Positions 5,001 to 57,046 are shown, counted from the stretch's first letter. The stretch is 64,000 bases of DNA from Candidatus Omnitrophota bacterium (GCA_021108075.1 JAIORP010000012.1:6539-70538); one strand, 5' to 3'. Made by a program: numbers and translations. The notes: generated from the sequence alone by a model not told the origin.

Positions 5001-5492
5001 TTTATTACAGTTTCGCGGGTCGAGAAACCTCATCCAGTAAAACAAGGATTGAAACATGATTTTATTTTTGCACTAATCCGGACAGGATCAAGTCGAGAAA
5101 CCTCATCCAGTAAAACAAGGATTGAAACATCCTATGCGTCAGTTCTCCGGGTGCGGTGTGATTGTCGAGAAACCTCATCCAGTAAAACAAGGATTGAAAC
5201 ATCAACCTGCGCATACCGGTTAACGCCCAATTAAATAGTCGAGAAACCTCATCCAGTAAAACAAGGATTGAAACAGTTCTTGCTTGGAAGAGTCCCCGGA
5301 TGCCGCTTGCGTCGAGAAACCTCATCCAGTAAAACAAGGATTGAAACGCGCAGCTCGAAGCGCAGATGGCGGAGTCGCAAGAAGTCGAGAAACCTCATCC
5401 AGTAAAACAAGGATTGAAACGATACAAGGACTTCATGACGGTACCAGCGAAGTTAGTCGAGAAATCTCATCCAGTAAAACAAGGATTGATTG
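2041..5492 (+). CRISPR. CRISPR array: 48 repeats of 37 nt (GTCGAGAAACCTCATCCAGTAAAACAAGGATTGAAAC), 47 spacers of ~34-37 nt, terminal repeat degenerate
   Basis: Exact 37-nt direct repeats with ~72-nt period, counted by hand. The last unit (5456..5492) carries substitutions (GAAATCTCAT...GATTGATTGAAG). The repeat 3' end ATTGAAAC matches the Cas6-type 8-nt crRNA handle. Confidence 0.97.
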
Positions 5493-5630
5493 AAGCTTAT
5501 CAAGGCCGCATATGGGCTGAAAGTGTTTCGCTTAAGGACTCTATCTGTTACATCTCCTTAACTATTAATTCAACTGCTGAAATTGTTTAAATGATTTTAT
5601 AGGAAAGCGTTATAGTGAATTTTTTGGTTT

Positions 5631-9535: not shown

Positions 9536-9883
9536 ATGAGTTCAAGTAAAGTCAATATAGATGAGATCAAAAAGAACATCAATAAGAAATCAGGTGATTG
9601 GATAAAGGTTGGGATGAGCACGTGCGGTATTGCCGCCGGGGCTGATAAAGTTTTAGAGAAATTTCAGGAAGAAAAAGAACGCCGAAATTTGGATATCCGT
9701 TTAGAAAAATGTGGCTGTGCCGGTATGTGTTACGCCGAGCCTTTAGTTGAAATTCGCGTTAAAGGAATGCCGCAGGTTGTATATGGAAAGGTTGACGCAA
9801 AAGTAGTTGTCGAAATCATTGATCGTCATGTTCTCCGGAAGCAATTACTGGATGATCATATATATAACATTAAGGTTCAATAA
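9536..9883 (+). CDS. hndB: Small HndB-like thioredoxin-fold [2Fe-2S] ferredoxin subunit
   Basis: 115 aa with Cys motifs STCGIAAGA...CGCAGMCYAEP; sits between the NuoE-like and NuoF-like genes as in hndABCD operons. Confidence 0.6.
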   Translation: MSSSKVNIDEIKKNINKKSGDWIKVGMSTCGIAAGADKVLEKFQEEKERRNLDIRLEKCGCAGMCYAEPLVEIRVKGMPQVVYGKVDAKVVVEIIDRHVLRKQLLDDHIYNIKVQ

Positions 9884-9964
9884 TACCAATTTCATTAAAT
9901 AATGACCAGAACCAATTCTGTTTTTCAGAGTTAAAATAGAACAATTTATTAATGGATTTGGCAT
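9883..9964 (+). repeat. MITE-like element, copy a (TIR ATACCAATTTCATTAAATAAT / TTATTAATGGATTTGGCAT)
   Basis: Terminal inverted repeats flanking a core related to copies b-h; ends 12 nt before the hndC start. Confidence 0.7.
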
Positions 9965-9976
9965 AAATGAGCGCAT

Positions 9977-14148: not shown

Positions 14149-14161
14149 CCGCCGGGTGATT

Positions 14162-14266
14162 ATACCAATGCCATTAAATAATGACAAAAAACCGATTCTG
14201 TTTTTCTCGACGCTAAGGCAAGAATATCAGAATTGAAATAGAATAATTAATGAATGGATTTGGTAT
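14162..14266 (+). repeat. MITE-like element, copy b (reference copy, intact TIRs)
   Basis: ATACCAATGCCATTAAATAATGAC...CTCGACGCTAAGGCAAGAATATCAGAATTGAAATAGAATAATTAATGAATGGATTTGGTAT, between hypA and hypB. Confidence 0.75.
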
Positions 14267-14293
14267 GAGTTTAAATATCGGGGAGGGGTTTTG

Positions 14294-17375: not shown

Positions 17376-17710
17376 GTTTTCCTCCAAAGAGAATGTCGGG
17401 ATTGTTTATCGCGACCCCATCAAGTATAGCTCCGCAACTCCAATGCCTGTGAAAGTGGGATGAGAGTTAAATCCAGAAACGAAGATTAGCGCCAATAGCG
17501 CTTGTAATAGTAAGTCCCCCGGGTGTGAACCCGTGGGAAGCTATTTTTCAGGCTCATTTTGCAGTAGAAAAGACTCTATTTTGATATATAATAATATATG
17601 TTGTATACTTATTTAGTTAAGTATTAATTTTCTTTATATTATGGCATTCATTGCAAGATGAGTTGCCATCCCTAATTCTACCATCGAATTTTTAACCGTT
17701 GATTATTTTT

Positions 17711-20700: not shown

Positions 20701-23700
20701 TGCGGCACGTTTTTATGACCGTTTGAATGTGGAGGAAACGATTTCCTTACAGACAAAACCTCAGGTCGTTCGCGATATTAAAATTATGGGTGTCACGGAA
20801 GCTATCGCGTATTTGTTGCACGCGTCGCCTGAAAAATTATTTGTGCATGAAGCGTATCTTCGGCAATTAGGTCTGGACCTGAATACAATTCGTGAGTGGC
20901 AACGGGAATATCTTGTTAAGCCGGAGCTGCTGAGTCTTTTTAATGAATTTAGAGAGAAAACGGAATTTGTACGGACATATGACGGCCATGATGAGTATTC
21001 GATCGGAGATTTCATTTTCAACGTGAAGAGCGGACAGAGCGCGTTATCTCAGGCTGAGATTCTTCATCATGACCGGCTTCAGGACCGGTTAAGGGGGATT
21101 TGGGGCGGCAGCACGATTATTCATTTGGATCAGCTGGGTGATGTTGTTGTCGACGGGGATAAAAAAAGGTTCGGTTATGTTTCCGTCTGGAATAAAGGCG
21201 AGCTGGTCGGAGAACGTTTGAAGGCGCTGGCTCAAAGAACGGATCCAGACAGTTTGACTGAAGCGCAAATTCTGATCGATCAATTTGTAGAGCAAGAGCA
21301 GCAACTGCACCTGAGAGGGGTTGTCGATAAAAATCCTGATATTATGACGAATCGCCGGATTTTGCCGATGGATAATCAGATGAAAGTGATGGTCGCGAGT
21401 CCGGCCGCCCAGTTGACGATTTGGGAGAATGCGTTATCTGTGTACCAGTCCCGATATGCCTCACGCCGGGCGGATGAGAATATATATTTATCTCCTCAGA
21501 TTTTACAAAGCATTCCAGAGGCGTTCAGGCCCTATTATGAACAAAAAGTAACGGAACAATTGTTGCCTTCTGCCGGACAGACAAAAGAAGACGCTTTTCA
21601 GCAATTTTACAATAATGTCTTTGAACTCGCCTTACATGTCGCGGATCGATCTCCCTTCGGAGACCTGATAAAATTTGGTTTAGTCCGTAATGAACAGGCG
21701 CATTTGATTGTTGAGAATTTGAAGAATACAGACGTGGAACATCCGGCCCTATTTGAACGCCGACTGAATCATATCCGGTTTATTTTTACACGGGCCCTCA
21801 TCGATCAGACCCGTCGTGATTATTTTGATTACGTCAATACGTCAAAAGGAAATCCGCTGCTTGCCTGGACCATGCTTTTTGTTGATTCATACCCGGAAGT
21901 TTATAATAAATTTAATTTGCTCATTAAAATTTTTCTGAACGAATTGATGGAAAATGCGGGATTGTTACAGTCCTTCCCCTCGAATGAAGAACTCTGGCAG
22001 TACATTTCAGCACGGTATCAAGAGACTTATTCTGTTAGAGGGTTAGCGACTCCCGGGTTAAGTGCATATGTGCGGCGTTCTTTTGAATATTTTATCGATA
22101 TCGCCCGTCAAATGCCGTTAAGCTGGGACTTGATACAAGAACGGCCAGCGGTCACCGGTGATTTGGCCTCAGATCCATACGAGTTTTCCCTAACATCTTA
22201 TGCCAATGAAACGCAAGGGTATCCCGATATGATGGGGGTACAAGTTTTAGATGAGCGTGAGTTTGGTCGTCTCAGGACCTATATGGATCAACCGCGTAAA
22301 GCGGTCTTGACAGACCTCGACGGCACAGCAACACTCGTTGATCAGAAATCAGGTCGAGTTAGTGAAAGCGTAAAAGAATCGCATAAGGCCAATATTCAAC
22401 GCTTTGCTGAGCTGGTCACTGATGGCGTCTTAGTTGTTCCGACCACAAACCGCCGGGAGTCAAAAGCGGTTGCTTACGCTGAAGAAATTGATCAGGTCAT
22501 CCAGCAGACTCCCGGGTATCGGTATCGTCAAGATTCTAGGACGGGCGGATCGTTTTTATTGTTTTGGGCCTCTGGGATGAATGGCATGGATGTTGGTCAG
22601 AATAAATTATTAGATGATTTTCAGTTAAAATTTAATCCGCAACAACAGGAAGAGGTCGTTCAATCCTTGCTGAAGGATCAGGTTATCGCGTCACGCGCCA
22701 CAAGACATGTTGAGATCCTTGATGGAAAAATTAATGTTTATTATTCAGGTGGTACGCGCGTAAGCCGGGCAGGTTTTTTAGATGCTATCCGGGGTGTTTT
22801 AGATGGTTTGAATACCCTGGTCCGTCAAGACGGTTTTGCCCCAAAGGGCGAATATTCTTTGCTGCGGGTTGTCGACGGGGGAGAAAATGTCATCTCGATA
22901 CTGCCGCAGGACGCTAATAAGGCCCGGCCAAAGAATTATATTCAAAATCGTTATGCTATATCTGAAGATGAAACATTGATCCTTGTTGACCAACCGCAAC
23001 AAGGACGGGCGGACAATGACCTTGTCCGTTTGTCAGGTATTCATGTTGGGGATGATATCGATGATTTACCAGAAGGAGTTATCAGCACCAAGAAAGCAAT
23101 CGGCCTGGTTGGTCCGCAGGCGGTTCAATGGCTGCTAACAAACACAGAATTTTCTTCTCCTTTTATTGAAGAAGAAACCTTCCGCTCGATACTGGCAAAG
23201 AATATCCCACCGACACGGAATGTCGTCATTGAAAAGGTCGGAAACTTGCGTTTGGTGAGAACTCCCTGGCGCAAAAGACGTGTTAATCCGACAACCCCTT
23301 TTAGCGCGGTTGTTCTTCCCTTTGATCCTGGCCTTTTTAATTTTCGGAACGAAAACATTGATGAAAGCGATATCTTTTTCGAAGGCATTATCGAAGGGCA
23401 GGAAACAACGTTATTGTTGCAAAAGTCTCCCTTTGCCCCCGATCATTTTCTTGTAATTCCTGAGCGTGATCTTGAGCGTCCGCAGGTATTGCAGCCAAAG
23501 GACATCGCTTTTGGTGCCCGGTTTGTCCGTTCGCAAGCTTTGCCGCATTTGCGTTTGGGGTTTACAAGTTTAAAAGGCGGCGCATCTATTAATCAGCTGC
23601 ATATGCAGGCCTTCACGACGATCGAAGACCTTTCCGCGTTAGAATTGGTTCCTAAAAAAGAGGAGTACCGTATTCAAGGCGTCAGTGTGAATGTATTGGA

Positions 23701-26700
23701 AACAATGGAGGACTATCATTATAACGGCCTGATGTTCCATTCAGAGAACATTGAAGACCTTTCTGTTGTTGTTTATCGATACATCGAAATATTGAACCGG
23801 TTTGATATCCCCTATACCGTTAATTGGACCCAGGTCGGGGTGTATGTTATGCCGGTAAGAAGTTCCGTCGGGATACAAGGACGATTGGGTTTTTATGAAC
23901 ATATGGGTTTTGTTATTTCTAAAGATGTCAGCGAAAGCCGAGAGCAGGCTGTCGCAAAGTATGCTGATGAAATGCAATCAGCATCTCTGAACGATGCGGA
24001 CTTTATCCTAACGCATCAGTTTACCTTCTCGACCGAAGAGATTGAAGCTGCATCATTGAGGGAATTATCTTCCCGGTTAAATGAAGGAACGGACCGTCCG
24101 TCTGACGCGGCGATGTTGGGTGGCAGGGATGACAGGAATGAAGAGCGGCTTAATCTGGAGGCGTTAGAAAAGATAAATCTGCAAGCCTACGGGCCCGGGG
24201 GGCGCCATGGACTGATTGACCTGGAAAAATCTTACAATGATTCGCGTGTTTTTATGAGTTATATTTTCGGGTTAGCCGGGGCCGGGATGGTTGGTCTTCC
24301 GACAGCACTAATGACTCAGGACATCTATTCGTCCGCGACGGGGGCGCTCGTTGGTGCCGGGGTCGCGATCGCGACATATGTAAAATTATTTCCACAATCA
24401 AAATATAAAAATATTGAAGAGGGTATCCAGGCGTTGGAGAAAGCGCGTACTCAAGAGGAGATCCAGTCTGCGCGAGGTTTATTTATCGATGGAATGGCAG
24501 GCACAGATTCAGTATTGCTTCATCGTTTGGGCTTAACAGGTTTGGAAACATCGGAAAAATTATTTGCTAAAATGATGGGCGCAGAACAAACAGAGCTTGT
24601 TCTTCCTTCTGATATCCAACCCATCCAGGCTGATCAGATCAGGCAATTAGAAATAAATATGGGACTGGCTGGACTGGCTGATTTGTTAAAGATTGTTGTT
24701 CATGAAAAATTCGCGTACTTTTCCGTTGTTCCATCAATTCCGACCGATGAGCAACGGAAGTCATTAAGGGCCGCGATATCAGACCCTGATGTGATCAGGC
24801 GGCTTTTTAAAAACGTATCTGATGATAGCAATACGATAGAACGCCTGCAAGAAAGGGTATGGCACGGGATCTTTGATCTGTTGTACCGGCAGGATGGAGA
24901 CTCTATATTCTCTCCGGAGTATTTAGAGCTTTACAGGGATAATGAGATTTTTATGGAACAGGGGGTTTTGCGGGAGCTTGCCAATGATCAAGAACGCTCT
25001 CAGGAAGATTATCTGGTTGACGCGGTGAAATCAGAAATTAAAGCGGACAAACAGTATAAAATTCTTGTTTTCGCGACTGGCTCGGGAGCACTGATTAATA
25101 ATTTGTTGCAACAAATTTCAAATATTGGTGAGATCGTTGAATATGACCGTAGCGCTACTTCCAATGAAACGGCTGATCGCAAACGCAGAGAATTGTTGCC
25201 GCCCGATTTATATAATAAAGTTCGGCAGATTACAGCTGATGTTAGAGATTTTAAATCTGAGCTGAATGGCGAAGAGTTTGATTTTATTATTTCCACGGCA
25301 TCATTGCGCCTGATGAGTTCCGAAGCCCGGGAAAGCATATTAGAATTTTTGCAGGAAAAAGCAGGGTTGCGCAAGGGGGGATCGTTTATCTATATGGATA
25401 CCAGGGAGCATTCAGAAATCATGGGGCAGGCGGTCGACCAGATGCGGACGTCCGGTTTTAATGTGAGCGTTGATGATAAGTTTTTCGCGGGCCACAGAGA
25501 CGCGATGTTTTATATTTTTGTGCATCAATACCGAAAGAATCAAATCTTTAGAAATTTTATTGATCAGTTAATGAGCTTAAAGCGTAAAGATAATTTATAC
25601 AATTTTCTTTATGAGATGGCCGGTCACAGGAGAATCAAATTCGAATTATTAAAGGCGACGCAAACATCTGAGAGTTTGAGGAAAAAGAATTTTGAATCAA
25701 TGGTGAATCGATTTTCTGACGCCACAAAACAGATGTTTGGTTCTGTGTTTGAAGATGCACGGGTGACAGTCCAAAAGGGACCCAGTTCACGAATCACAAT
25801 CCGTTTATTTGAAAAGGATCCAGATGTTGATTATTTAGACAGCTATGATATCAGCGTCGATACCGCGCTGGGCCAGGTGTATGCGGTCACTCTTTATGAT
25901 GGGCGGAGTATCGGGAAAAACACTTTAATTGTTGGACGCGCGGTCTTGCAGGATCCAACAGTGGATAGAGTCATTCTGACGCAGCATGTGTTGTCTTCAA
26001 AATATGGATATGATGAAGCGTTAAAGGAATTGAAGTCCGTGTTATCTGAAATATTGCCTGAGGGGATGTTAAATTTTGATGAATCGGAAACATTGGATCG
26101 TTTAGCGACACATGCCGCGGGGTTAACAAAGAGTGATATGTCGGAGGCTATTAACGCCATTCCGGTCGATGCGGAAAATTACGAAGATATGATCATTGAA
26201 GCGTTTCGTTCATATTCTCGAACAGTCTATCCTTCACAAGAGCGTTTGCCTTTCCGGGGAGCGGCAAAGATTTTTCGAGAGAATGCCTCGATGGCGATGC
26301 GTTTGGCCGGCGAAGAGGGTTATTCATCAATTAGCGGACTCGTTTCTTTACCTGATGGTTTTCAAAATTTAGCGTTATATCAGAGGCTTGGTTTTAATCC
26401 GATAATCCCGGAAGGAAGAAGCGATTATTTTGGACAGGTGCAAGCAGCGTTAACAGATAAGAGCGCGGGCGCGACCTTAAAGGAAAAGGCCTGGTATTTG
26501 TCGCAACGTCTGGAGCAATTGATATTACTCGTTCAAAAAGATATTCCTGATCAAGACGCGGCGATGTTGGGCAAAATCAATCGTTATCAACTTAAAAATG
26601 GGGCAACGGTTTTAGGCCCGTTATCTGAGGACGCGTTTAATCAGATGGCAGGCGAAGACGCGTTTTTTCTTGTCAGAGATAAGGAAAAAGGAGTCTATGC

Positions 26701-29700
26701 TCAAAAGACAACCCCCGAGGAGCAGGGTTATAGTGTTGTTGCAACGGAATTTAGTGAGATCGAAACAATTTTTAAGGATGCCGGTGTGGATATGGTCACT
26801 CATATTTTGTCGACGTTATGGGAGAATCCAGATCGTGAAGTCGTCGTGTTAGCTGATGGAGTTGGCCGGGGAGTGGAATTGCAGGGACTTGTTGAAAAAT
26901 TAAAGAAAGAGGTAGAGGCTTTCGGCCTTGATATATCAAAAATCAAAATTTATGGTCTTTCAGACATGTATTTTCAGGACTGGCAGGACGCAGACCCGAT
27001 GATCAATTTTATTCTTGATGATCGAGAGAACTTGCCGGACTATTTCTCGAGAAGGCAAATTGACGTGATGATGAGTTATAAGGGCATTTCTCATATCGGT
27101 CAGCAAGCGGAATATATCAATCATATGAGAATGATGAAGCCGCACTTTAAATACAACGCCTTAATTGTCCATGATTTTTATTTTGGGAATTTAGACGCCG
27201 TTGAATCGATGCTGGAGCGGAATGGTTTTTCGGTTAAGAGGGAACGGTTGCCGGGTATGACGGAGTTATTTGTTCTGCGACCGGTCGATTTTAATAAAGA
27301 TGCGCCTGCCGATGTATCAGAAAACACGAATAGGGAGGTTAAAACGGTGCCGTATCAACAGGCGGAGTTTTTTGAACTCACGCCTGATTACAAACTAGCA
27401 GGAACATACACCACCCGAAAGGGAGAAGAATTCAATATTTATTTTAAAGATAATGATTTTGTGTTGATGAACGTTGAAGGGCAGTTTATCGGTAAGGTTG
27501 TATTTGATTTTACGGAAGAGGGTGTCGCGGAAATTGATTTAGTGCGCGTTTCAGAGTATGTTCAGGGGGAAGGATATCTGTATGATTTGATTGATGCTAT
27601 ATCTTTTTATTTAGGACAATTGGGAGCCGAAAGTATTGTCGTTACGGAAATTTATAATCCATTTTTGTCCTATGTTTTGACAAAAGAATATGGATTTCAT
27701 CCTGAGATTAAAGAGGGTGATGAACGCAAACAATTGATTATTGGTTCACGAGAGCCAGGTGAGAGACTGCCCGTTTATCTTTCCGGAGAAGGCGCTAAGA
27801 AAGTTTTCTCGCCGGGCTCAGGGTATGATGTTCTATTAGAAAAGTTAGATATCCTTGATACCCCTCCCGATGATGGCGTTGTCAGCTATGTGTTTGTTGA
27901 TTATGTTAAGGACGTTAATAACGCGCGATACCAACAGCAAATAAGTTCTGTCAAAAACAGGATGGCGATTGATGGAGAAATTCTTGAGCAAAGGAAGAAC
28001 GAATATCAAACAAAATTTCAGCGACGAGGAACAGACGACATGTCAGAAGATCACCGCGATCAAGCGATGTTGATAACCTATACGGAAAAAGAGTGGCAGC
28101 AAATAGACCAGACGTATCAAATTTTGCAGCAGTTGGCGCAGGTGGTTGATACTCAGATGGAACAGAGTGGTATGGTTGAAATTTTTGATGTCTTCCGTCA
28201 ATGGCTCAATCAAGGACCGCGGGATGCTTTGGCCCAAATCGAATTGATTGAGGACCCTCAGGAACAACAGGAAGCTTACCAGAAATTAAGCGCTGCCCTA
28301 TCACGTTTTGTTCATGAATTTGAGACAACATATGATCATGTATCGAAAAGATGGGGGCAGGAAATCGCGGGCGTTAACGGCCGGTCCTTTGTTCAATTTG
28401 ATACGGATGGGAAGGTCCTTTCTTATCCATGGTTTGATTTGACGTATGACCTGAATGACAAGTTGGATAAACTGGCCACCTTTATTCTTGGCTGGGGGAA
28501 GCTTTTGGTTACGGATGGCGCTGTTGCCAAAGATAATTTTTTGCTTTTGGTCAACAAATTGGAATCTACGTACCGCATATGGGATGGTTACCGGCAATAT
28601 TTGCGCCATGTTGCGGATCCGCTGTCAATTCAAGATAGTCAGATCGCGGATAATCAAGAAGAAAGAACACAGCCGCGTTTGGGTTATGATGAGTTTTTAT
28701 TGCCGTACCGCAATGCGTTATTAGCGCGCGATGCGGACCAGGATACTTTGGAGCAACCGCGTGAAGAATATGTTGCCCTGGTGGATGCGCAGGGGAATTT
28801 TTTGCGGGCTGTTCCACGTTCTGAGCGTAAAAATAAGGCGCCGGATGAATTTACTCAGGGTGCTGTTATTATTGTTGTCGATGAGGATGGGAATGTTTTG
28901 ATGCAGCAGCGATCAGAAGGGAAGATGGAAGGGCACGAAACCTTTGGCCCCATGGATTGGACCATCGGGGGGCATCGTTCTGATGAGGATGCCGACATTG
29001 AAGCCGCTGCTTTGCGCGAAGGCAATGAAGAGGCCGGGGGCATTATCAATTTTAAGAAATCAAATCTGGTGCAGATCGATCAGCGTCCTGTTAATCCGGA
29101 CACGGATGGCCGCTGGGTGCGCTCAACGTTCATTTATGTGGTCAGTGCAACAGAGAAGAACAATATTCAGGAACAGATGATCGAGGGCTGGCAAGGGAAT
29201 GACGAAGTTGACGGCTGGGAGTGGTGGGGGCAAGATGATTTTACAACAGAGGCAAAAACGAGCCAGAAATGGTCAACCGTGATTGATCTGTTAAGAGACA
29301 TTCCTGATTTTCCGGCGATGGTAGAAACGGCTGTTGTGGGTGTTACGCAGCGTCGCCGAGATAGCACGGTTCGAGACGGGGCAGCACTGACAACCTATAC
29401 GGAAAAAGAGTGGCAGCAAATCGACCGGACCTACCAGACGCTGCAGGAGATCGCCTTAAGCGTTCAGGGGAAATTGCAGGAAACAGGTATGACCACTCTC
29501 TTTCTACGCATCGACCAGTTCCTGGTCCAGGAGGACCCACGGCTGATGTTTGAACAATTACAAGACTTACCGAGCAAAGAGGCTCAAGATCGGGTTTATG
29601 CGGTAATAAACACGGCCATGCAGGGCTATGCCCTGAATATCAAAACCATGTATCAGGAAAACATATCAGAGATTGACGCTCAACTCGCCCGGATCAAAGG

Positions 29701-30313
29701 CCGATCCTTTGTTCAATTTAGCGCGGAGGGGGCATTGGAAGCATACTCTGCAGAGGAGTTGATCTATGACATCAAAGATAAGATAGGCAAAATAACGACT
29801 AATATTTTTTCCTGGTGGGATATGCTGTCATCAGACGGTGATCTCCCAAGGGAACAATTTTTGTTTATGCTGGATCAGTTTGAATATGCGAGTGAGGCAT
29901 TCCATCAGTACCGTTCTTATCTGGGACACATTCTTCAACCAATTCGTATTCTGGATGAAGATATCGTTGACAACCAAGAAGAACAAAGCCACCCACGGCA
30001 AAGCTATGATCAATTTTTACTGCCCTACCGTGATGCGTTGATCGCGCGTGATACCGCAGTCCAGGACGCTGCCATGCTGGGCAGAGAGCAAAGTGACAAT
30101 GTCGGTGGTATCGATCTTAATCCCGCCAATTTGAATCTGCGCATCAAGCGTGACGGGGATGGTCAGCCGTTGCCGTTTGATGCCCAACCGATCGATAGTA
30201 TTAACATTGAAGGACTGGTCCCTGTGATCATTAATGTTACACCGATCATAAACCTGCCGCTATTGCTTGGAGCGGCTGAGCCGGGTGAAGTCGATCAGGT
30301 CCTATCCCTTTAA
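17711..30313 (+). CDS. Giant (~4,200 aa) secreted or membrane-associated multidomain protein
   Basis: Uninterrupted 12.6-kb ORF with an N-terminal signal peptide. Domains by motif: PRK/uridine-kinase-like P-loop (GISGLPGGGKT...YDPVTG), HAD (LTDLDGTA...GDDIDD), HIT/GalT-like (HFLVIPERD, INQLHMQ), hydrophobic hairpin, class-I MTase-like (ILVFATGSGAL), GNAT-like (QGEGYLYDL), Nudix box (GGHRSDEDADIEAAALREGNEEAGG) and tandem ~230-aa repeats. The C-terminal ~75 aa are shared with the ORF at 47473. Confidence 0.8.
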   Translation: MPSKSMSYKLFCLFLILALGVHMIMPATGFAQGMISLPIPGEMVRVSPVFDPMMIRGVMVSPDNPFELKFLMDSGDAILADEALKKEGQGLIKYFLATLTTPDEDLWVNLSPYENDRIMANEFGQTEMGRDMLAQDYLLKQLTASLMYPEEELGRRFWERVYEEAYKRFRTTNILVNTFNKVWIIPEYADVYEKDGVAYILDCRLKVMLEEDYIASQQVLGNAAWARKLGVADLTEEDKANLFASQSDPLKAILKEIIVPEIEREVNEGRNFGQLRQIFYSMILATWYKERLKNSILNHVYSNQKKINGIDVEDKDIKEKIYQQYITAFKRGVYNYIKEQYDPQKGEVIPRKYFSGGATWINIKDVTRYHKELPSNFDKVPRSDFAMLTRLDDSAQAAPRAMDAAMLDTSGRQRARQDAFEKLVRDRFEFDNVIASFNDLLKGANLKVYPSRADLYQYEGGLDTGSYFFTKLVGYGLDAQRKYIALRRLIEQDQFLDFISGEATFSRGDLLRILKNKELDDELDLILKDQDSYDDFISMLADRDYMDILFSHTGTAEIYIENNKLVAQLPNTQLVDVLGFISFSPEDRNIEFLLSENSMAQFLFDIRRQVLPLLVEAAQEYGWGFRSPLEVELSDAVRPIANVISRVREQELERFLGQDTFSRRVEDLEHGAFQNLKDLFQERKQQGQPVMIGISGLPGGGKTQKDKRVAAAIAEVVKEDIVIIDEDRFIKQRAPVDTRGEGLGGKFDWSAHDQSLKDLREGRSVMAQMYDPVTGGNPMLALTEAGNIIILNGNRTITIVADKDQNLFDLIEEEHQPGQPAQVIRHHFKTENLTQSGPFTSGSTVYQFKIENGKLMVGFQGYDVLRLEEQNAPRNILAMTQYEIDLTREDLVARIQLSGEHKHLEAQSVFPLNVVSDRMDVNAVSRAILLKEVIPTDKPIVFSGTHAYTQYKDNKFVSNDQIFDVSLYYQTPWIVRWTRDWLRSQERGKQRGEQLGNAARFYDRLNVEETISLQTKPQVVRDIKIMGVTEAIAYLLHASPEKLFVHEAYLRQLGLDLNTIREWQREYLVKPELLSLFNEFREKTEFVRTYDGHDEYSIGDFIFNVKSGQSALSQAEILHHDRLQDRLRGIWGGSTIIHLDQLGDVVVDGDKKRFGYVSVWNKGELVGERLKALAQRTDPDSLTEAQILIDQFVEQEQQLHLRGVVDKNPDIMTNRRILPMDNQMKVMVASPAAQLTIWENALSVYQSRYASRRADENIYLSPQILQSIPEAFRPYYEQKVTEQLLPSAGQTKEDAFQQFYNNVFELALHVADRSPFGDLIKFGLVRNEQAHLIVENLKNTDVEHPALFERRLNHIRFIFTRALIDQTRRDYFDYVNTSKGNPLLAWTMLFVDSYPEVYNKFNLLIKIFLNELMENAGLLQSFPSNEELWQYISARYQETYSVRGLATPGLSAYVRRSFEYFIDIARQMPLSWDLIQERPAVTGDLASDPYEFSLTSYANETQGYPDMMGVQVLDEREFGRLRTYMDQPRKAVLTDLDGTATLVDQKSGRVSESVKESHKANIQRFAELVTDGVLVVPTTNRRESKAVAYAEEIDQVIQQTPGYRYRQDSRTGGSFLLFWASGMNGMDVGQNKLLDDFQLKFNPQQQEEVVQSLLKDQVIASRATRHVEILDGKINVYYSGGTRVSRAGFLDAIRGVLDGLNTLVRQDGFAPKGEYSLLRVVDGGENVISILPQDANKARPKNYIQNRYAISEDETLILVDQPQQGRADNDLVRLSGIHVGDDIDDLPEGVISTKKAIGLVGPQAVQWLLTNTEFSSPFIEEETFRSILAKNIPPTRNVVIEKVGNLRLVRTPWRKRRVNPTTPFSAVVLPFDPGLFNFRNENIDESDIFFEGIIEGQETTLLLQKSPFAPDHFLVIPERDLERPQVLQPKDIAFGARFVRSQALPHLRLGFTSLKGGASINQLHMQAFTTIEDLSALELVPKKEEYRIQGVSVNVLETMEDYHYNGLMFHSENIEDLSVVVYRYIEILNRFDIPYTVNWTQVGVYVMPVRSSVGIQGRLGFYEHMGFVISKDVSESREQAVAKYADEMQSASLNDADFILTHQFTFSTEEIEAASLRELSSRLNEGTDRPSDAAMLGGRDDRNEERLNLEALEKINLQAYGPGGRHGLIDLEKSYNDSRVFMSYIFGLAGAGMVGLPTALMTQDIYSSATGALVGAGVAIATYVKLFPQSKYKNIEEGIQALEKARTQEEIQSARGLFIDGMAGTDSVLLHRLGLTGLETSEKLFAKMMGAEQTELVLPSDIQPIQADQIRQLEINMGLAGLADLLKIVVHEKFAYFSVVPSIPTDEQRKSLRAAISDPDVIRRLFKNVSDDSNTIERLQERVWHGIFDLLYRQDGDSIFSPEYLELYRDNEIFMEQGVLRELANDQERSQEDYLVDAVKSEIKADKQYKILVFATGSGALINNLLQQISNIGEIVEYDRSATSNETADRKRRELLPPDLYNKVRQITADVRDFKSELNGEEFDFIISTASLRLMSSEARESILEFLQEKAGLRKGGSFIYMDTREHSEIMGQAVDQMRTSGFNVSVDDKFFAGHRDAMFYIFVHQYRKNQIFRNFIDQLMSLKRKDNLYNFLYEMAGHRRIKFELLKATQTSESLRKKNFESMVNRFSDATKQMFGSVFEDARVTVQKGPSSRITIRLFEKDPDVDYLDSYDISVDTALGQVYAVTLYDGRSIGKNTLIVGRAVLQDPTVDRVILTQHVLSSKYGYDEALKELKSVLSEILPEGMLNFDESETLDRLATHAAGLTKSDMSEAINAIPVDAENYEDMIIEAFRSYSRTVYPSQERLPFRGAAKIFRENASMAMRLAGEEGYSSISGLVSLPDGFQNLALYQRLGFNPIIPEGRSDYFGQVQAALTDKSAGATLKEKAWYLSQRLEQLILLVQKDIPDQDAAMLGKINRYQLKNGATVLGPLSEDAFNQMAGEDAFFLVRDKEKGVYAQKTTPEEQGYSVVATEFSEIETIFKDAGVDMVTHILSTLWENPDREVVVLADGVGRGVELQGLVEKLKKEVEAFGLDISKIKIYGLSDMYFQDWQDADPMINFILDDRENLPDYFSRRQIDVMMSYKGISHIGQQAEYINHMRMMKPHFKYNALIVHDFYFGNLDAVESMLERNGFSVKRERLPGMTELFVLRPVDFNKDAPADVSENTNREVKTVPYQQAEFFELTPDYKLAGTYTTRKGEEFNIYFKDNDFVLMNVEGQFIGKVVFDFTEEGVAEIDLVRVSEYVQGEGYLYDLIDAISFYLGQLGAESIVVTEIYNPFLSYVLTKEYGFHPEIKEGDERKQLIIGSREPGERLPVYLSGEGAKKVFSPGSGYDVLLEKLDILDTPPDDGVVSYVFVDYVKDVNNARYQQQISSVKNRMAIDGEILEQRKNEYQTKFQRRGTDDMSEDHRDQAMLITYTEKEWQQIDQTYQILQQLAQVVDTQMEQSGMVEIFDVFRQWLNQGPRDALAQIELIEDPQEQQEAYQKLSAALSRFVHEFETTYDHVSKRWGQEIAGVNGRSFVQFDTDGKVLSYPWFDLTYDLNDKLDKLATFILGWGKLLVTDGAVAKDNFLLLVNKLESTYRIWDGYRQYLRHVADPLSIQDSQIADNQEERTQPRLGYDEFLLPYRNALLARDADQDTLEQPREEYVALVDAQGNFLRAVPRSERKNKAPDEFTQGAVIIVVDEDGNVLMQQRSEGKMEGHETFGPMDWTIGGHRSDEDADIEAAALREGNEEAGGIINFKKSNLVQIDQRPVNPDTDGRWVRSTFIYVVSATEKNNIQEQMIEGWQGNDEVDGWEWWGQDDFTTEAKTSQKWSTVIDLLRDIPDFPAMVETAVVGVTQRRRDSTVRDGAALTTYTEKEWQQIDRTYQTLQEIALSVQGKLQETGMTTLFLRIDQFLVQEDPRLMFEQLQDLPSKEAQDRVYAVINTAMQGYALNIKTMYQENISEIDAQLARIKGRSFVQFSAEGALEAYSAEELIYDIKDKIGKITTNIFSWWDMLSSDGDLPREQFLFMLDQFEYASEAFHQYRSYLGHILQPIRILDEDIVDNQEEQSHPRQSYDQFLLPYRDALIARDTAVQDAAMLGREQSDNVGGIDLNPANLNLRIKRDGDGQPLPFDAQPIDSINIEGLVPVIINVTPIINLPLLLGAAEPGEVDQVLSL

Positions 30314-32467: not shown

Positions 32468-33187
32468 ATGAGTGAAAAAACGATAACATTTACTATTGAT
32501 GGTGTTGAAGTCAAGGGGGCACCCGGTCAAACTATTCTTGATGCGGCTGATGCCGCGGGTATTTATATTCCCCGTCTGTGTCACTTCAAAGGCCTGAATC
32601 CGCACGGAAGTTGCCGCGTGTGTACCGTCATTGTGAACGGCCGGCCGCAAGCCGCCTGCACGCAACCCATCGCCGAAGGAACGACAGTTGAAAATGATAC
32701 GGAAGATATAAAGAAACACCGCAGCAACATCGTTGATATGATGTTTGTGGAGGGGAATCATTTTTGCATGTTCTGTGAAAAGAGCGGCAATTGTGAACTG
32801 CAGGCCCTTGCCTATCGTTTAGGTATCTGTGCCCCGAAATATCCGTTTCAATTCCCTGACTGCACGCTCGACGCGTCTCATCCGGATATCTTTATTGACC
32901 GCAATCGTTGTATATTATGTGGCCGCTGTGTTCAGGCGTCGAAAGATCTTGATGGGAAGTGTGTTTTTGAATTTGTCGGACGCGGCGCGGAAAAGAAAAT
33001 TGCTGTTAACGCCGAGGCGAAGTTATCTGACACGAATGTTGATGTGACGGATAGAGCGGTTAATATCTGTCCGGTTGGTGCCATTTTGAAGAAGCGTGAA
33101 GGCTTTAAAATTCCTATTGGGGAACGGATGTATGATGCTCAACCGATTGGTTCTGACATAGAGTCTGATACCAAATCCATTAAGTAA
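32468..33187 (+). CDS. hoxU: Hydrogenase diaphorase Fe-S subunit HoxU
   Basis: 2Fe-2S N-terminal domain (CHFKGLNPHGSCRVC), HFCMFCEKSGNCELQ and CILCGRCVQAS cluster motifs; ~239 aa. Confidence 0.82.
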   Translation: MSEKTITFTIDGVEVKGAPGQTILDAADAAGIYIPRLCHFKGLNPHGSCRVCTVIVNGRPQAACTQPIAEGTTVENDTEDIKKHRSNIVDMMFVEGNHFCMFCEKSGNCELQALAYRLGICAPKYPFQFPDCTLDASHPDIFIDRNRCILCGRCVQASKDLDGKCVFEFVGRGAEKKIAVNAEAKLSDTNVDVTDRAVNICPVGAILKKREGFKIPIGERMYDAQPIGSDIESDTKSIK

Positions 33188-33308
33188 TTGTTCTATTTTA
33201 ATTCTGATATTTTTGCCTTAGAGTCGAGGAAATCAGAACCGGTTTTGGTAATGATACCAATGATTGAATTTGGTCTCGTTATTCGTACTATTATTTAATG
33301 GAATGGGT
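33168..33308 (-). repeat. MITE-like element, copy c (reverse orientation, composite); left TIR overlaps the last codons and stop of hoxU
   Basis: GATACCAAATCCATTAAGTAATTGTTCTATTTTAATTCTGATATTTTTGCCTTAGAGTCGAG...ATTATTTAATGGAATGGGTCT matches the reverse complement of copy b. An extra partial TIR pair sits at 33250..33280. Confidence 0.65.
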
Positions 33309-33354
33309 CTAAATAACAATTTATATTAATTTATTTGGGAAAAGGTAAAGAATT

Positions 33355-40329: not shown

Positions 40330-40438
40330 GTTATCCCTGTCTTATTAAATAATTTTTCTGTTTTCTCGTCGCTATTTTCGTAAAAGCGTTCGCAAAAAAC
40401 GATGAGAATTTTTGGCGATTCATTAATGGATTTGGTAT
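40330..40438 (+). repeat. MITE-like element, copy d (degenerate left part, intact right TIR CATTAATGGATTTGGTAT)
   Basis: ATTAAATAATTTTTCTGTTTTCTCGTCGCTATTTTCG...GCGATTCATTAATGGATTTGGTATGA, immediately upstream of the hypE start. Confidence 0.5.
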
Positions 40439-40456
40439 GACTGCCCGTGAGGTTTT

Positions 40457-42565: not shown

Positions 42566-42631
42566 TTTTTTTCGACGCTAAGGCAAAAATATCAGAATTG
42601 AAATAGAACAATTCATTAATGGACTTGGTAT
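42566..42631 (+). repeat. MITE-like element, copy e (solo right half)
   Basis: TTTTCGACGCTAAGGCAAAAATATCAGAATTGAAATAGAACAATTCATTAATGGACTTGGTAT; left TIR absent. Confidence 0.6.
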
Positions 42632-42685
42632 AACACGCGAGCTTAAAAAAAGAGTCAGCAACCGAAGGTCGCCGGCTCTTTTTTA

Positions 42686-44143: not shown

Positions 44144-44277
44144 TGTCAATCTCCTGTGCGGGTAAAGTGAAGCCATCAATGATGAACTTCATTGTTTATG
44201 TTTTTTACCGGGCCCCGGGGGTATTTTTAACACTAGTGTATTAGTAGTATAATACACTAATACACGCATGTCAATAG

Positions 44278-44440
44278 TGATACCAAATCCATATGGCAGG
44301 ATTTGACAATTTGTTCTAACGCTATAAAATGATTAAACATTTGCTTTTTTATACCAAATCCATTAATGAATTGTTCTATTTCAATTTTGATATTTTTGCC
44401 GTAGCGTCGAGGAAAGCGGAACCGGTTCAGGTGTTAATCC
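44278..44440 (-). repeat. MITE-like element, copy f (reverse orientation, duplicated left TIR)
   Basis: ATACCAAATCCAT at 44280..44292 and again at 44351..44363, followed by ATTAATGAATTGTTCTATTTCAATTTTGATATTTTTGCCGTAGCGTCGAGGAAAGCGGAACCGG; sits in the divergent spacer between the rSAM and CPBP genes. Confidence 0.65.
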
Positions 44441-46317: not shown

Positions 46318-46923
46318 TTAATTTTCTATTTCACAAGCTCTAATTACCCCTTTAAGAATTATTTTGCGTAAATCATTAGTTGAGATTTTGGGGGAGACAG
46401 ATTGCTTGATTTTCCACTGGAAAATAATATTATCGTCATCGGGATTGTCATTAAAAAATATGATATCAAAATAAACTCCACGATGTACTATATCACAGCG
46501 TACCTTATATAGTAATGCTACAACTTCTTTCAGGGATAAATATGCGTCCTTTTGTAATTTTTCAGAGGGATATTTAATAAAAGATTTTTCTAACTTATCT
46601 TTTTCTTCCTCATTGAGAATATTTTCGAAAAATTTGTATACATACTTTTTGCTATCTCTTTCACCTGTATAATTAAATTTTATTTTTGCCGCCGCCTCAG
46701 CGATAATTATAAAAAATAAAACATCAAATGCTGGACGGCCTTGTTGATGTATTTTGTCTGCTAAATAGAGCATTCTTGCGCATTGGTGAACGATTATTCT
46801 TGAATTTCGATTTCCTCTTGCTTTCTTTACAAAGATTTTTGCATCTTTTTCAGAATTTAATACAGGTAAAAAATATTCCCACGGATCAATTTCTGCTATG
46901 TGTTTTTCTGTTTTAATTCTCAT
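46318..46923 (-). CDS. Hypothetical protein with HEPN-like R-x4-H motif (VRCDIVHRG)
   Basis: 201-aa ORF in a low-GC islet next to the transposase remnant; predicted all-alpha; Rx4HR near the C-terminus. Confidence 0.5.
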   Translation of the reverse strand: MRIKTEKHIAEIDPWEYFLPVLNSEKDAKIFVKKARGNRNSRIIVHQCARMLYLADKIHQQGRPAFDVLFFIIIAEAAAKIKFNYTGERDSKKYVYKFFENILNEEEKDKLEKSFIKYPSEKLQKDAYLSLKEVVALLYKVRCDIVHRGVYFDIIFFNDNPDDDNIIFQWKIKQSVSPKISTNDLRKIILKGVIRACEIEN

Positions 46924-47472: not shown

Positions 47473-50400
47473 ATGAACGCGTTATTTTTCTCGAACCTTT
47501 CCACATTTTCTCGAAAAATTTTATCTGTTACTTTATGTCTTTTTCTCATTCTGATATCCACCCCGGTCCCGCTTGTCAGGGCCCAAACGCCATTGAATCT
47601 GCCCTTGCCAGGGGCGGCGGTCCCTTTAACCTCCGCGTATGAACCCGCGTTATTAAGGGGATTGACCATTTATCCGGATAATCCTTTGCAGTTTGAATTT
47701 TTGTTGGATGCGGGCGACACTTTTTTGCGAGGTCAAGCATTGCGAAAGCAAGGTGAAAAGTTAATCAAATATTTTTTGGCCGCCTTAACCATTCCTGAAG
47801 AAGAGATGTGGGTGAATCTTTCTCCCTATGAAGATAATCTTATCATTCCGGATAGTTTTGGTGACACGACCATGGGGAGCGACCTTTTAGCCCAGGATTA
47901 TTTGCTCAAGCAATTAACCGCTTCTTTAATGACCCCTGAAGATGAGATCGGCCGGATTTTTTGGGACCGTATTTATGAAAAAGTTTACAATATGTACAAG
48001 ACAACGGACATTCCATTGAACACGTTTAATAAAATTTGGATTGTGCCGGAATCAGCCACAGTCGTGGAGAAGGGTAATGATGTTTACCTTATGAATAGCC
48101 GGTTAAGCGTGATGCTGGAAGAAGATTATGTCGCCTTAAAACAAAATCTTGGCGACGAGAAATTCGGCACCGAGCAAATGGAAATGGATGAAGCTCAGGT
48201 AATCAGTCAGGTCGCGACAGAATTGGTGCGTGAGATTATTATCCCTGAAATTGAAAGAGAGGTCAATGAAGGCCAAACTTTCGCTCAGTTGCGGCAAATT
48301 TATCATGCCATGGTTTTATCCACCTGGTATAAGCAGAATTTAAAAGAATCATTCCTGGGGCAGGTCTATATCGATCAATCCAAGACAAAAGGTGTGGATA
48401 CCTGGGATAAACAGGTCACGAATAAGATTTATGATCAGTACATTCAAGCCTTTAAATCAGGAGTCCAAAATATCATCCGTGATGAGTATAATCAGCATGA
48501 TGGAGTTGTTGTGCCGCGGAAATATTTTTCCGGTGGTTTTACCACGCAACGTTTTGATGGCCGTGATTTGGCGATGTTGACCACCCGGATCAATTTGGAG
48601 TATTTCCAAAATGTTGACGCGAAGTCAAGAGCGGAAGTTCGGGATTGGCTGATGGAAGCGGATAATAGTGAGTTGTTTCAGTTTTCATTGTCTTTGATCG
48701 AATACACGGAAAATAATGAACTGCACATGGACGATGTTGTTAACGCCGGTTTTTTTGATAATGTGATTGATGAACTTCACTCACAAAGGATAAACTTACT
48801 AAAGGAGGCTCAGATCGCGCCTTTTATGCTGGAAATTCCTTTTGATCAGCGGATACAAGAAGACGGAATATCTCACCCTACGACCAAAGATGACCTGATT
48901 ATTATCGGGGAAAGATTTCGCAAGGGAATTGATCGTATTTCTAAAATCGTTCACCGGGATAAACTGACAGGTCTGTATAATTTAGATGGATACATGTTGC
49001 GGTTGCAAGAGATGGTCGATTGGATCAGACGTCAGGGTGATAAGGATGATCAGCTGCAGTATGTCTTTTTTGATATCGATCATTTTAAGGCGGTAAATGA
49101 TACTTTCGGTCACGATAATGGGGATATTGTCTTGCAGGAATTCGCCGAGATTTTAAGTTCAAACGTGCGCGCTTCAACCACAGTCGCCCGGATCGGCGGG
49201 GAAGAGTTCATCGTTATGATGTTTGATAAATCATCTGAAGATGCTGTTCTCGCCATGAAAAGAATGAAAGGCGTTTTGCGGGATCATTTTCAAACGCAGG
49301 TCAGCAAGACGGACAAGACATTTTTGTACGATAAAAAACAACTTGTTATCCAGGCGAAGAAAAGGATCGGTAAACTCCTTGAAGCAAAGACCGCCGGGCA
49401 GTCGGTTGGTTTTGATATAACAAAGTTACGGGACGCGATCGCGCACCAGGTTAAGGTCCAGGCAACCAATGACGCCGAAAGGCGATTCGCTCAAGCCCTC
49501 CAGTCGGAAGCTCTTTTTAACGCGGATGAAACCGGAGTTAATCCTGAAATTGAAAAGGCGCTTGACCTATTAGCGGGCTGGATGATCACGTTCAGCGCGG
49601 GGATAACGATTTTTGATTTGCCCCAGTATGAAAAGCTGCTTCAACGTGATGGCATCAAATCCGGTGACGCTTTGACGCAAGTGGCGACATTGCTTTATCG
49701 TCAGGGTCAAGCCGCTGTTGAGGTGGCTAAAAACAGTGGACGGGATGAAATAACGGTTTTTGATCCAGAGACAATGGAAATCGATGAAGACAGGGATCTG
49801 GGCAGTTATGCCAGTCCGGCCCCCTCTTATGAAGCGCATGACCTGGACAAAATGACGAGACGACGATTATTGAAAGAAGTCAACGGGCTCCGTAAGAGGT
49901 TTGTATCCTTGATAAATAAATCCGAGACCGATCCGTTAACAGGAATGAAAAACCGCAATGGCTTATATCAAAAGTATATTGAACGGGTGCATTACGGCGC
50001 GCGTTACCAGCCTGATACGAGTATGGCGTTAGCCTATACGGATATTGATTTCTTTAAGACCATTAATGATAGTTTTGGCCATGAAATAGGGGATGATGTT
50101 TTAAAGGCTTTAGCCGCTGGGTTTAAAGAAAATTTAAGAACGATTGATACCGTGGCCCGTTTCGGCGGCGAAGAAGTCATTATTTTTTTGCCGGCCATGA
50201 AGCGCATGGATGAGCAACGGACGATTTTAAAAGTTAGAGATATTGTCAGGAGAACAACAAAATACATTCGGGAAAATGTTTCTTTATTCGGGAACAAGAC
50301 TGAGGTGATTAAAAAAATTAGAGCGCGCATCGGGGCCCTCGACGAAAGTCAAAAAGAAGGGCTTGGCGTGGACGCTGATCTGGCGAATCTACGTAACGGT

Positions 50401-51309: not shown

Positions 51310-51468
51310 GAACAAAAGAGAGGCAGCTGTTATCTGAGTAAAAAGGTAGCGGCTGTTTCCACTTTTTTCTTGCTCTCTTTGATATATCAGTTATAATATT
51401 TGAATTCTATCCTGCAAAACATAAAACTATCGTAAAACATTAGGTCTATTATACTTTCATCGTTAATG

Positions 51469-51571
51469 ATACCAAATCCATTAAATAATTACCAAAGTCA
51501 GTATGATATTCTCGACGTTTAAACGCGAATATTGGTATTCAGATAGGACAATTATTTAATGGATTTGGTAT
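51469..51571 (+). repeat. MITE-like element, copy g (intact TIRs ATACCAAATCCATTAAATAAT / TTATTTAATGGATTTGGTAT)
   Basis: ~20-bp terminal inverted repeats; divergent core; ends 25 nt before the trx start. Confidence 0.75.
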
Positions 51572-51595
51572 GACTTGTTTAAAAGGGAGTGAACT

Positions 51596-56414: not shown

Positions 56415-56512
56415 CGGCCTTTAGTTAGTTGTTCTATTTCAATTCTGATATTCTCACTGAAGCTTCGAGAAAAGCGGAAATCAGAAGAATTATTTATCGG
56501 ATTTGGTCTCGC
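56415..56512 (-). repeat. MITE-like element, copy h (reverse orientation, degenerate TIRs)
   Basis: GTTGTTCTATTTCAATTCTGATATTCTCACTGAAGCTTCGAGAAAAGCGGAAATCAGAAGAATTATTTATCGGATTTGGTCTCG. Confidence 0.6.
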
Positions 56513-57046
56513 TAGTTGTTCAATAATTTAGTGGAATTGGTATTATCGATGATTCAAGACAAAAGGGGGTTCATCAGGTGTCGGTCGTTTCACAACCCGG
56601 GCGGTTGTCTGCTCTTATATCCTCAGTATTTTTTAGAACGCATTATTAACAAAATTTATTTTGACTTTTTGGGGATAAGTACTATTTTAAGGGAAAAGGT
56701 TAAAGTCTTAATAATATGGAGCAGCGTATTATTGAGGGATGATTGTTCGGGGAAAATGATAATCCTTATCATGTTCAATTTGTGTCCTGGATTTTCAGGT
56801 TGCCGCTTGACTGGCGGAAATGTCGGTAAGGCGCGGAGTTATCCTTTTCCTTTTCAGGCGTCTCGCGGGCGGTCACGGACGCTTCAGAAGAGATGGAGTA
56901 TGTGGCCACGAAGTCAAAATAATTGCTGGACCGGGTTGAAGAAAAAATTGTTGATGGATCATCGTTTAAGGTTTTTTGACCCATTGGCAGGCAAATGTTC
57001 CACCTTCCGGAGGCAGGTTTAATAGATTTAAAGAAAGGGATCATGC

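Follow-up and report, generated by a model that had tools for sequence, protein, structure and literature searches.

MITEs with IS630-family termini and a TNA target duplication in a Candidatus Omnitrophota genome

Palindromic repeats of about 103 bp, with the ends TACCAAWTCCATTAA and TTAATGGAWTTGGTA, occupy eight intergenic loci of the window (the whole 64-kb stretch of Candidatus Omnitrophota DNA analysed here). These repeats are very probably non-autonomous MITEs, derived from and mobilised in trans by a transposase of the IS630 family (Tc1/mariner type, with a DDE_3 domain). As such they belong to a commonplace class of mobile DNA in bacteria, now recorded from a Candidatus Omnitrophota genome, and they are mildly unusual in the length of the target duplication, which is 3 bp, and in the occurrence of identical termini on MITEs of three phyla. 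We infer both the mobilisation in trans and the consequences at the RNA level that are discussed below; a functional role of the element is possible but unsupported. The identification explains palindromes of ~100 bp that interrupt Omnitrophota operons and might otherwise be taken for regulatory sites, small RNAs or terminators, and it supplies exact ends (TACC...GGTA) and a target (TNA) that can be used for masking the elements and for finding the parent insertion sequence.

Copies in the window

With at most 2 mismatches allowed, the ATACCAAWTCCATTAA terminal inverted repeat (TIR) has 12 matches in the 64-kb window. Dinucleotide-preserving shuffles of the window give 0.19 +/- 0.42 matches, and 12 was reached in none of 100 shuffles. 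The matches form inverted pairs with a spacing of 80-140 bp. A search with the family profile (nhmmer), together with repeat finding, recovered exactly eight loci, the same eight that the original prediction had listed, and the profile found no ninth copy above noise in the whole window. A ninth copy does lie 8.4 kb past the end of the window on the same contig, giving 9 copies in 73.5 kb, and the local density is about one copy per 8 kb. By exact matches of its proteins, the window belongs to contig NODE_16 (118,899 bp) of ENA ERZ26872899, and in NCBI the identical or nearly identical proteins bear the label Candidatus Omnitrophota/Omnitrophica bacterium.

Once oriented by their asymmetric core, the window copies align end to end, in the order left arm, short CAAAA..TTTTG hairpin, a second hairpin containing TTCTCGACG.., and right arm. 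The arms (TIRs) of the elements are 15-22 nt long, the window copies range from 80 to 141 bp, and an ORF of 80 aa or more is found inside none of them. Similarity among the copies is bounded at ~103 bp, with unrelated flanks. As originally described, the copies always lie in intergenic spacers and occur in both orientations; contact with flanking ORFs is confined to the ends of those ORFs.

Four of the copies, a, b, d and g, all on the + strand, have right ends 12-27 nt upstream of the next start codon, which agrees with the claim that the right TIR tends to lie near the downstream gene. Copy a (element 9884-9963, 80 bp, or 9881..9966 with its duplication) is an internal-deletion derivative with an intact TAA/TAA duplication; its neighbours, assigned by Pfam, are a 2Fe-2S thioredoxin-like gene, whose stop codon is at the same time the left TAA (9881-9883), and a NuoF-like subunit. 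Copy b (14163-14265, 103 bp; 14160..14268 with flanks) is full length and lies in the hypA/hypB spacer, with mismatched flanks, TTA and TGA. Copy d (40334-40437; 40331..40440 with flanks) lies in the hypD/hypE spacer and has an intact right TIR, a degenerate left TIR (14/20 by eye), and a core in which the left half (TTTTCTCGTCGCT) is recognisable and the right half has been replaced. Copy g (51470-51570, 101 bp; 51467..51573 with its duplication) is full length, with an intact TGA/TGA duplication and perfectly paired terminal arms of 22 bp; 24 nt separate its right end from the thioredoxin start codon, and on its other side is a GGDEF gene. The cores of a and g had been described as unrelated to those of the other copies. 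For g this does not hold, since it matches the consensus over its full length, and for a the difference stands as that of an internal-deletion derivative. Copy g is nearer to the copies of another MAG (up to 82% identity) than to copy b (~74%).

The remaining copies are composite or incomplete. Copy c (- strand) has a long form, 33169-33309 (33166..33312 with flanks), made up of a full element (33169-33278) and an outer left TIR (33290-33309); it is opposite in orientation to the flanking + strand hydrogenase-subunit genes (NuoG-like and NuoB-like), and the upstream ORF (32468-33187) runs 19 nt into it. Copy e (+ strand) is a 3' half only, 42566-42630, followed by TAA (42566..42633), and lies between convergent genes, a YkuD-domain gene and a radical-SAM gene by Pfam. 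Copy f (- strand; 44352-44431, or 44349..44431 with its flank) has the core and right TIR without a left TIR, about 170 nt upstream of the - strand radical-SAM gene, and a solo right-TIR remnant of 19 nt, ATGGATTTGGTAT (44274-44292, - strand), lies about 60 nt from it. Copy h (- strand) again has a long form, 56415-56542 (56415..56545 with its flank), with tandem left TIRs and a degenerate right end; it is reversed relative to the flanking + strand genes, an NYN-domain gene and a hypothetical gene. The end first assigned to this copy, 56512, falls short by ~30 nt, as the outer TIR (56528-56543) extends the element to 56542.

Is the family tied to hydrogenase genes, as its first description suggested? 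The copies beside thioredoxin, GGDEF, radical-SAM and NYN-domain genes speak against such an association, as do the unrelated contexts of copies in other genomes.

Termini, target duplication and spread

The elements of the family and of its relatives (~63-447 bp) are too short to code for a transposase. Where, then, is the enzyme to be found? A full-length insertion sequence with the same TIRs had been proposed as something to look for, and the search led to ~1.1-kb IS630-family elements in Psychromonas, Shewanella and marine metagenomes. On an 848-bp contig of Psychromonas marina, TAATACCAATTCCATTAATTAATTGG stands directly 3' of the C-terminus of a DDE_3 transposase ORF, which carries the IS630/Tc1 signature ...VIMDGASWH...PPYSPELNPIEQVW. 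PF13358 (DDE_3) is present in all 120 homologues listed of 508, some of which are named IS630-family transposase. Complete insertion sequences of ~1.09 kb contain orfA (HTH_23/29/32/33) and orfB (DDE_3), the domains being assigned from precomputed Pfam matches on the ORFs of loci L044-L049 and L136-L145. Their left and right ends read TACCAATTCCGATAA and TTATCGGAATTGGTA in L047-L049, TACCAATCAGTAATG and GATGGAATGGTA in three copies from Shewanella psychrophila (CP014782; L044-L046), and TACCATTCCATCTAG and AGATGGATTGGTA in a marine genome and metagenomes (L136-L143).

The main Omnitrophota MITE agrees with the Psychromonas end at 15/15 terminal nucleotides, and a second MITE subfamily, found in the MAG CAZIRV01 (TACCAATTCCACTAATTAATT; L016 4278-4384 and others), agrees at 20/21. 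The termini of the marine gammaproteobacterial IS630 elements, to which these figures refer, can be written TACCAATTCC(A/G)(T/A)TAA, and these elements too have a TNA duplication. Between the ends there is no likeness: the parent-type insertion sequence is ~1.09 kb long, with an HTH orfA and a DDE_3 orfB, whereas the window elements, of 80-141 bp, code for nothing and have a hairpin core of unrelated sequence. The hosts of the parent type, marine Gammaproteobacteria, also belong to another phylum than the Omnitrophota. Four transposase ORFs used as tblastn queries revealed no transposase of the matching clade in the window, in agreement with the original prediction, or in the related Omnitrophota and Bdellovibrio loci that were retrieved; full-length partners were seen in Gammaproteobacteria and metagenomes only. 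A partner in the source genome is hypothetical; it would be a PF13358 gene bounded by TACCAATTCC...GGAATTGGTA.

The classical target duplication of Tc1/mariner elements is TA. The data presented here do not fit this canonical IS630/Tc1 duplication and instead fit TNA. Seven copies of one insertion sequence with different flanks have in common the sequence from TACC to GGTA, and the trinucleotides outside it match in 7/7 cases (TTA/TTA in six, TAA/TAA in one). A set of 40 TIR-bounded pairs (about 36 genuine elements, two spurious pairs, and two duplicate loci of one insertion sequence) includes 24 with identical flanking trinucleotides, and nearly all flanks are T-N-A. When the left middle base is not A, 8 of 14 genuine elements match, compared with ~3 expected from base frequencies (a hand tally). 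Finally, in L048/L049 one copy of the insertion sequence abuts another at GCG-TAA-TACC, and the intact sequence reads GCGTAACTAACG. Because insertion sequences and small elements alike are flanked by a 3-bp TNA duplication, the element proper is TACC...GGTA, and the ends originally proposed, ATACC...GGTAT, need to be trimmed by their outermost A and T, which belong to the duplication. We considered and rejected a TA duplication around an element CC...GG, which requires that the 8-bp target TNA-TA-TNA never vary and that its two middle bases be equal, and which also clashes with the junction of one insertion sequence within another in L048/L049, which fits a TAA target. Duplications of TAA and TAAA are known variants in the pogo/Fot branch of the same group (PMC7386202), so that the 3-bp duplication is a variant and not a break with the group.

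In the window, target-site duplications were sought as originally recommended, and matching TNA duplications turned up in copies a and g, half of the four copies that have both TIRs. Around copies b, c and d each flank reads T-N-A, but the middle bases differ, and the same pattern, mismatched middle bases between a conserved outer T and A, is seen in about one-third of the genuine elements. This excess of mismatches confined to the middle base is not accounted for by simple neutral decay; recombination between copies is a possibility. With IS630-family termini and a 3-bp TNA target duplication, the label 'MITE-like' that the repeats were first given is well founded.

At six element ends (the one in copy a; L014 6157-6159; and one each in L018, L019, L030 and L039) the upstream gene stops at the very TAA that forms the duplication. 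Such insertions are to be expected, since TAA and TGA are preferred targets and stop codons alike, and they left the upstream long ORFs undamaged. In the mechanism that we favour, the helix-turn-helix of the transposase would recognise TACCAATTCCATTAA at both termini, and the enzyme would excise the element and paste it into a TNA trinucleotide, which would thereby be duplicated. Copies would survive only in intergenic spacers, many of them just after a stop codon or before the next RBS, because TAA and TGA are stops and the spacers ahead of an RBS are AT-rich. Amplification inside the Omnitrophota lineage would then have given rise to a genome-specific subfamily, by now mostly decaying in this genome.

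How far has the family spread? At least 10 contigs of CAZIRV01 (its label is 'uncultured Planctomycetales') and several of Candidatus Omnitrophota OFTM38 carry full-length homologues of ~103 bp, which in both genomes are 70-82% identical to the window copies. Dozens of copies with unrelated flanks were found across other contigs and MAGs, and the copies of the Omnitrophota family are intergenic throughout. Each genome has its own subfamilies, within which identity reaches 95-97% in CAZIRV01 and OFTM38. At least three Omnitrophota-type MAGs carry the family, which identifies it as a bounded, dispersed element and not a peculiarity of one locus or an RBS-like motif; the hosts found by the TIR scan, which covered one genome per species, are a lower bound. 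As a negative control, 80 unrelated hypE loci (723 kb), taken from a metagenome scan with HypE in which the best relative was 62% identical, contained no family copies. Viral contigs scanned for the 20-nt TIR gave no matches, a TIR search of a plasmid collection gave only a small element on one Pseudoalteromonas plasmid, with no transposase annotated at it, and a literature search on the TIR strings returned nothing relevant.

MITEs of 81-447 bp with TACCAATTCCATTAA termini and TNA flanks also occur in Bdellovibrionota MAGs, in Oceanisphaera and Paraglaciecola, and on the Pseudoalteromonas plasmid. The Bdellovibrionota and gammaproteobacterial elements share their termini and TNA flanks with those of the Omnitrophota, but their cores are unrelated, and the gammaproteobacterial ones at least are GC-rich, unlike the Omnitrophota core. 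Judged from these sequences, the MITEs of the other phyla appear to have arisen independently, by miniaturisation of related insertion sequences. A single IS630 clade with an atypical 3-bp duplication is in this way linked to miniature derivatives in three phyla. In other MAGs, elements are often tandem or abutting (L006 2059-2360; L024 1157-1363; L010 2568-2690; L027 6894-7128), separated by a single shared TNA or TTAA, an arrangement that could result when an element re-inserts into the duplication beside a copy already in place.

The density of copies had also been taken as a sign of recent mobilisation, and this part of the original prediction is not upheld. The window copies are mutually only 70-92% identical, 5/8 are defective (truncated, composite or degenerate), and matching duplications are kept in half of the four copies counted above. 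Every other assembly of the organism that was examined, one of them 99.8% identical, contains copies d and g in unchanged form, and no presence/absence polymorphism was seen at these two sites among the strain variants L051-L053, L134 and L135. These observations, together with the lack of a matching transposase in the window and the related loci retrieved, point to an old, decaying family in the source genome rather than a recently mobilised one. As no such polymorphism was seen among the available assemblies, the case for mobility in this lineage is made by the duplications and the copy number alone.

Several well-studied bacterial repeats provide points of comparison. The repeat unit of pneumococcus (RUP) is a 107-bp MITE attributed to IS630-Spn1 and presumed to be moved in trans; its reported duplication is TA, as opposed to TNA in the window family. 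Like the window element, RUP is ~100 bp long, intergenic and palindromic, with TIRs that resemble IS630-family ends; it differs in having no sequence similarity and in its host phylum. Among enterobacteria, ERIC/IRU and REP/BIME are dispersed intergenic repeats that are transcribed, form hairpins and occur in either orientation. REP depends on RAYT enzymes and is not known to make a target duplication, and we know of no identified transposase for ERIC; neither has the termini of the window family. The Correia elements of Neisseria (CREE/NEMIS) have TA as their duplication. They are described, in a review that also names RUP, as 100-150-bp MITEs with TIRs of ~26 bp and no known resident transposase, placed mostly just upstream of genes or between cistrons; the junctions of element and duplication create promoters, and the TIR hairpins are cut by RNase III (PMC10969869). 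In the window family, too, the junction makes a promoter-like box, as described below. For Correia elements the promoter and RNase III activities have been demonstrated, whereas for the window family they are suggested by analogy, the sequences being unrelated.

Hairpins and alternative explanations

The element is an imperfect palindrome throughout, and copies within operons should therefore fold into RNA hairpins of 20 bp and more. Folding the element as RNA, another check that had been proposed, gave strong predicted hairpins for intact copies, with the exception of copy h: copies b and g fold at -26 to -34 kcal/mol, z-scores across copies a, b, c and g are -3 to -7, and copy h folds no better than shuffles. 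In 23 aligned copies, 94% of the consensus-hairpin cells are paired, as against 21-41% when the structure is slid by 1-3 columns. Pairs changed on both sides number 8, compared with 2.9 +/- 1.4 in shuffles that ignore relatedness (1 of 500 is as high), and the covariation score lies above all 500 of these shuffles, with counts that come from few related sublineages. The compensatory changes include TTACGTTAA / TTAACGTAA in two related copies, CCCATT / AATGGG in one, and a switch from T-A to G-C in the inner stem of one sublineage; counted by eye, there are roughly six independent events. These results hint that complementarity of the arms is maintained, either by selection for the hairpin or by a process that homogenises the arms, and we treat this as a lead and not as a result. 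Covariation of the arms beyond shuffles is not predicted by a model in which the TIRs are purely protein-binding sites, and is a point against the transposon explanation.

Signals of other kinds are sparse. In Rfam 15, at or above the gathering score, no family matches at the element copies, CRISPR-DR7 being the only match in the window, and a scan of copies b and g for terminator-like sites gave none. On the - strand, the stretch 14159-14187, which joins the left end of copy b to its flank, contains TTGTCA-17-TGnTATAAT, an 11/12 promoter match that faces outward, antisense to hypA. The junction TGGTA + TAA + T spells the extended -10 box TGnTATAAT, and element ends joined to a TAA duplication could generally make outward-facing TGnTATAA -10-like boxes. 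By analogy with the Correia elements, effects on the processing, stability or transcription of operon mRNAs are plausible; if the hairpins do act on mRNA processing, they would have a bearing on the expression of hydrogenase operons in an uncultivated phylum.

Could the element, then, be more than a passenger? A broader version of the transposon explanation would have an IS630 clade (TACCAATTCC ends, TNA target) cross Gammaproteobacteria, Bdellovibrionota and Omnitrophota and independently spawn hairpin MITEs in each, the Omnitrophota hairpin then being selected, as the compensatory changes in the arms suggest, for a role as an intercistronic module of RNA processing or stabilisation or as an outward promoter. 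We consider this extension rather unlikely. If it were true, TAA and TGA targets, being stop codons, would deliver the elements exactly to cistron boundaries, such as those of the hnd/hyp operons.

A related explanation, which we regard as improbable, is that the repeat is a domesticated structured RNA, its hairpin selected as an RNase III site, a protective 5' stem-loop or a translational modulator, and its transposon origin only a matter of history. Complementarity kept through two-sided changes (in the comparison above, which ignores relatedness), the folding of intact copies far better than shuffles, the position of four window copies 12-27 nt before a start codon, and the precedent of Correia elements, which RNase III cuts at their TIRs (PMC10969869), can all be cited for it. 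Against this, orientation is unbiased: between co-directional genes, 11 copies are forward and ~7 reverse relative to those genes. Copies e and f are without one arm, copy h folds like its shuffles, an Rfam match is absent, and the covariation counts come from few related sublineages, with relatedness ignored by the control. Insertion at TNA in AT-rich spacers, together with purifying selection, explains the position near the RBS equally well.

Two other alternatives fare worse than a transposon-derived MITE mobilised by an IS630-family enzyme. One, very unlikely in our judgement, is a hairpin repeat moved by some other enzyme (a RAYT/IS200-type single-strand transposase) or generated by replication fold-back, as might be suggested by covariation of the arms and by the fact that the whole element, and not its ends alone, is an imperfect palindrome. 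REP/RAYT and IS200/IS605 are not known to make a target duplication, whereas a TNA duplication is seen here, and the terminal 15-21 nt are IS630-family ends that come with the same duplication; nor did a Y1 (RAYT) transposase gene come to notice in passing. The other is a repeated operator, a palindromic site at which a host regulator would coordinate the hnd/hyp and neighbouring operons. The copies are palindromic, lie near gene starts and are clustered in the hnd/hyp region, and yet they also stand beside unrelated genes here (thioredoxin, GGDEF, NYN-domain, radical-SAM) and in other MAGs, in both orientations and between convergent genes, with target duplications; their ends are identical to insertion-sequence ends, and the hypE loci of other organisms are without them. 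The chances of such an operator are slim in the extreme, and for the 'repurposed regulatory palindrome' of the original prediction there is no positive evidence, although the hairpin arms co-vary. Local segmental duplication, or a chance or RBS-like motif, has nothing in its favour except the clustering of copies in one window and is scarcely conceivable given the 12 TIR matches against 0.19 expected, the ~103-bp bounds with unrelated flanks, and the homologous copies on many contigs of other genomes.

Other features of the window and of strain variants

A CRISPR array at 2041-5420 contains 47 exact copies of the 37-nt repeat GTCGAGAAACCTCATCCAGTAAAACAAGGATTGAAAC (Rfam CRISPR-DR7), with spacers of 34-38 nt and a degenerate extra repeat at ~5457-5493. 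The repeat-spacer units at 2256-2326 and 2327-2397 are 99% identical, so one spacer has been duplicated. None of the spacers matches the MITE, the insertion sequences or any other part of the window. The MITE core motif TTTCTCGAC (for example at 14204-14212) equals the CRISPR repeat's first 9 nt in reverse complement, where an estimated ~0.02 9-mer matches of this kind are expected by chance, and the window copies also contain ATTGAAA. The 9-mer is present in copies of CAZIRV01 and OFTM38 as well, and with no spacer match the link to the array is probably coincidental.

Strain variants differ from the window at two further places. In ERZ26872896 (96-99% identical; L135 3564-3700), an extra 137-bp insert containing a hairpin lies between hypC and hypD; it is absent from the window (39019/39020), and a copy 80% identical to it is found in CAZIRV01 (L021 6202-6335). 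The insert looks like a member of a second, unrelated family of small mobile elements that is polymorphic between strains. In L052 (1-1731, compared with the window at ~47327), what lies upstream of the GGDEF gene is a wholly different sequence, and a SEFIR/TIR_2-domain gene and a 165-aa DDE_3 fragment replace the 201-aa ORF of the window (46318-46923). This fragment was considered as a possible partner of the MITE and set aside, as it belongs to a different IS630 subgroup and is without matching TIRs.

A single ORF of 4204 aa (17699-30313) contains internal repeats of ~1.3 kb (28071-28137 versus 29388-29454; 28362 versus 29682). Parts of it have 66-68% DNA identity to OFTM38 (L029 3015-3745), and the same is true of part of the GGDEF gene (47756-48455). 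Two paralogous NuoF-like (Complex1_51K) genes share 73-82% DNA identity (10421-10546/31285-31410, 10921/31788 and 11429/32263), which indicates, from the sequences of these paralogues, a probable duplicated hnd-type gene cluster in the window.
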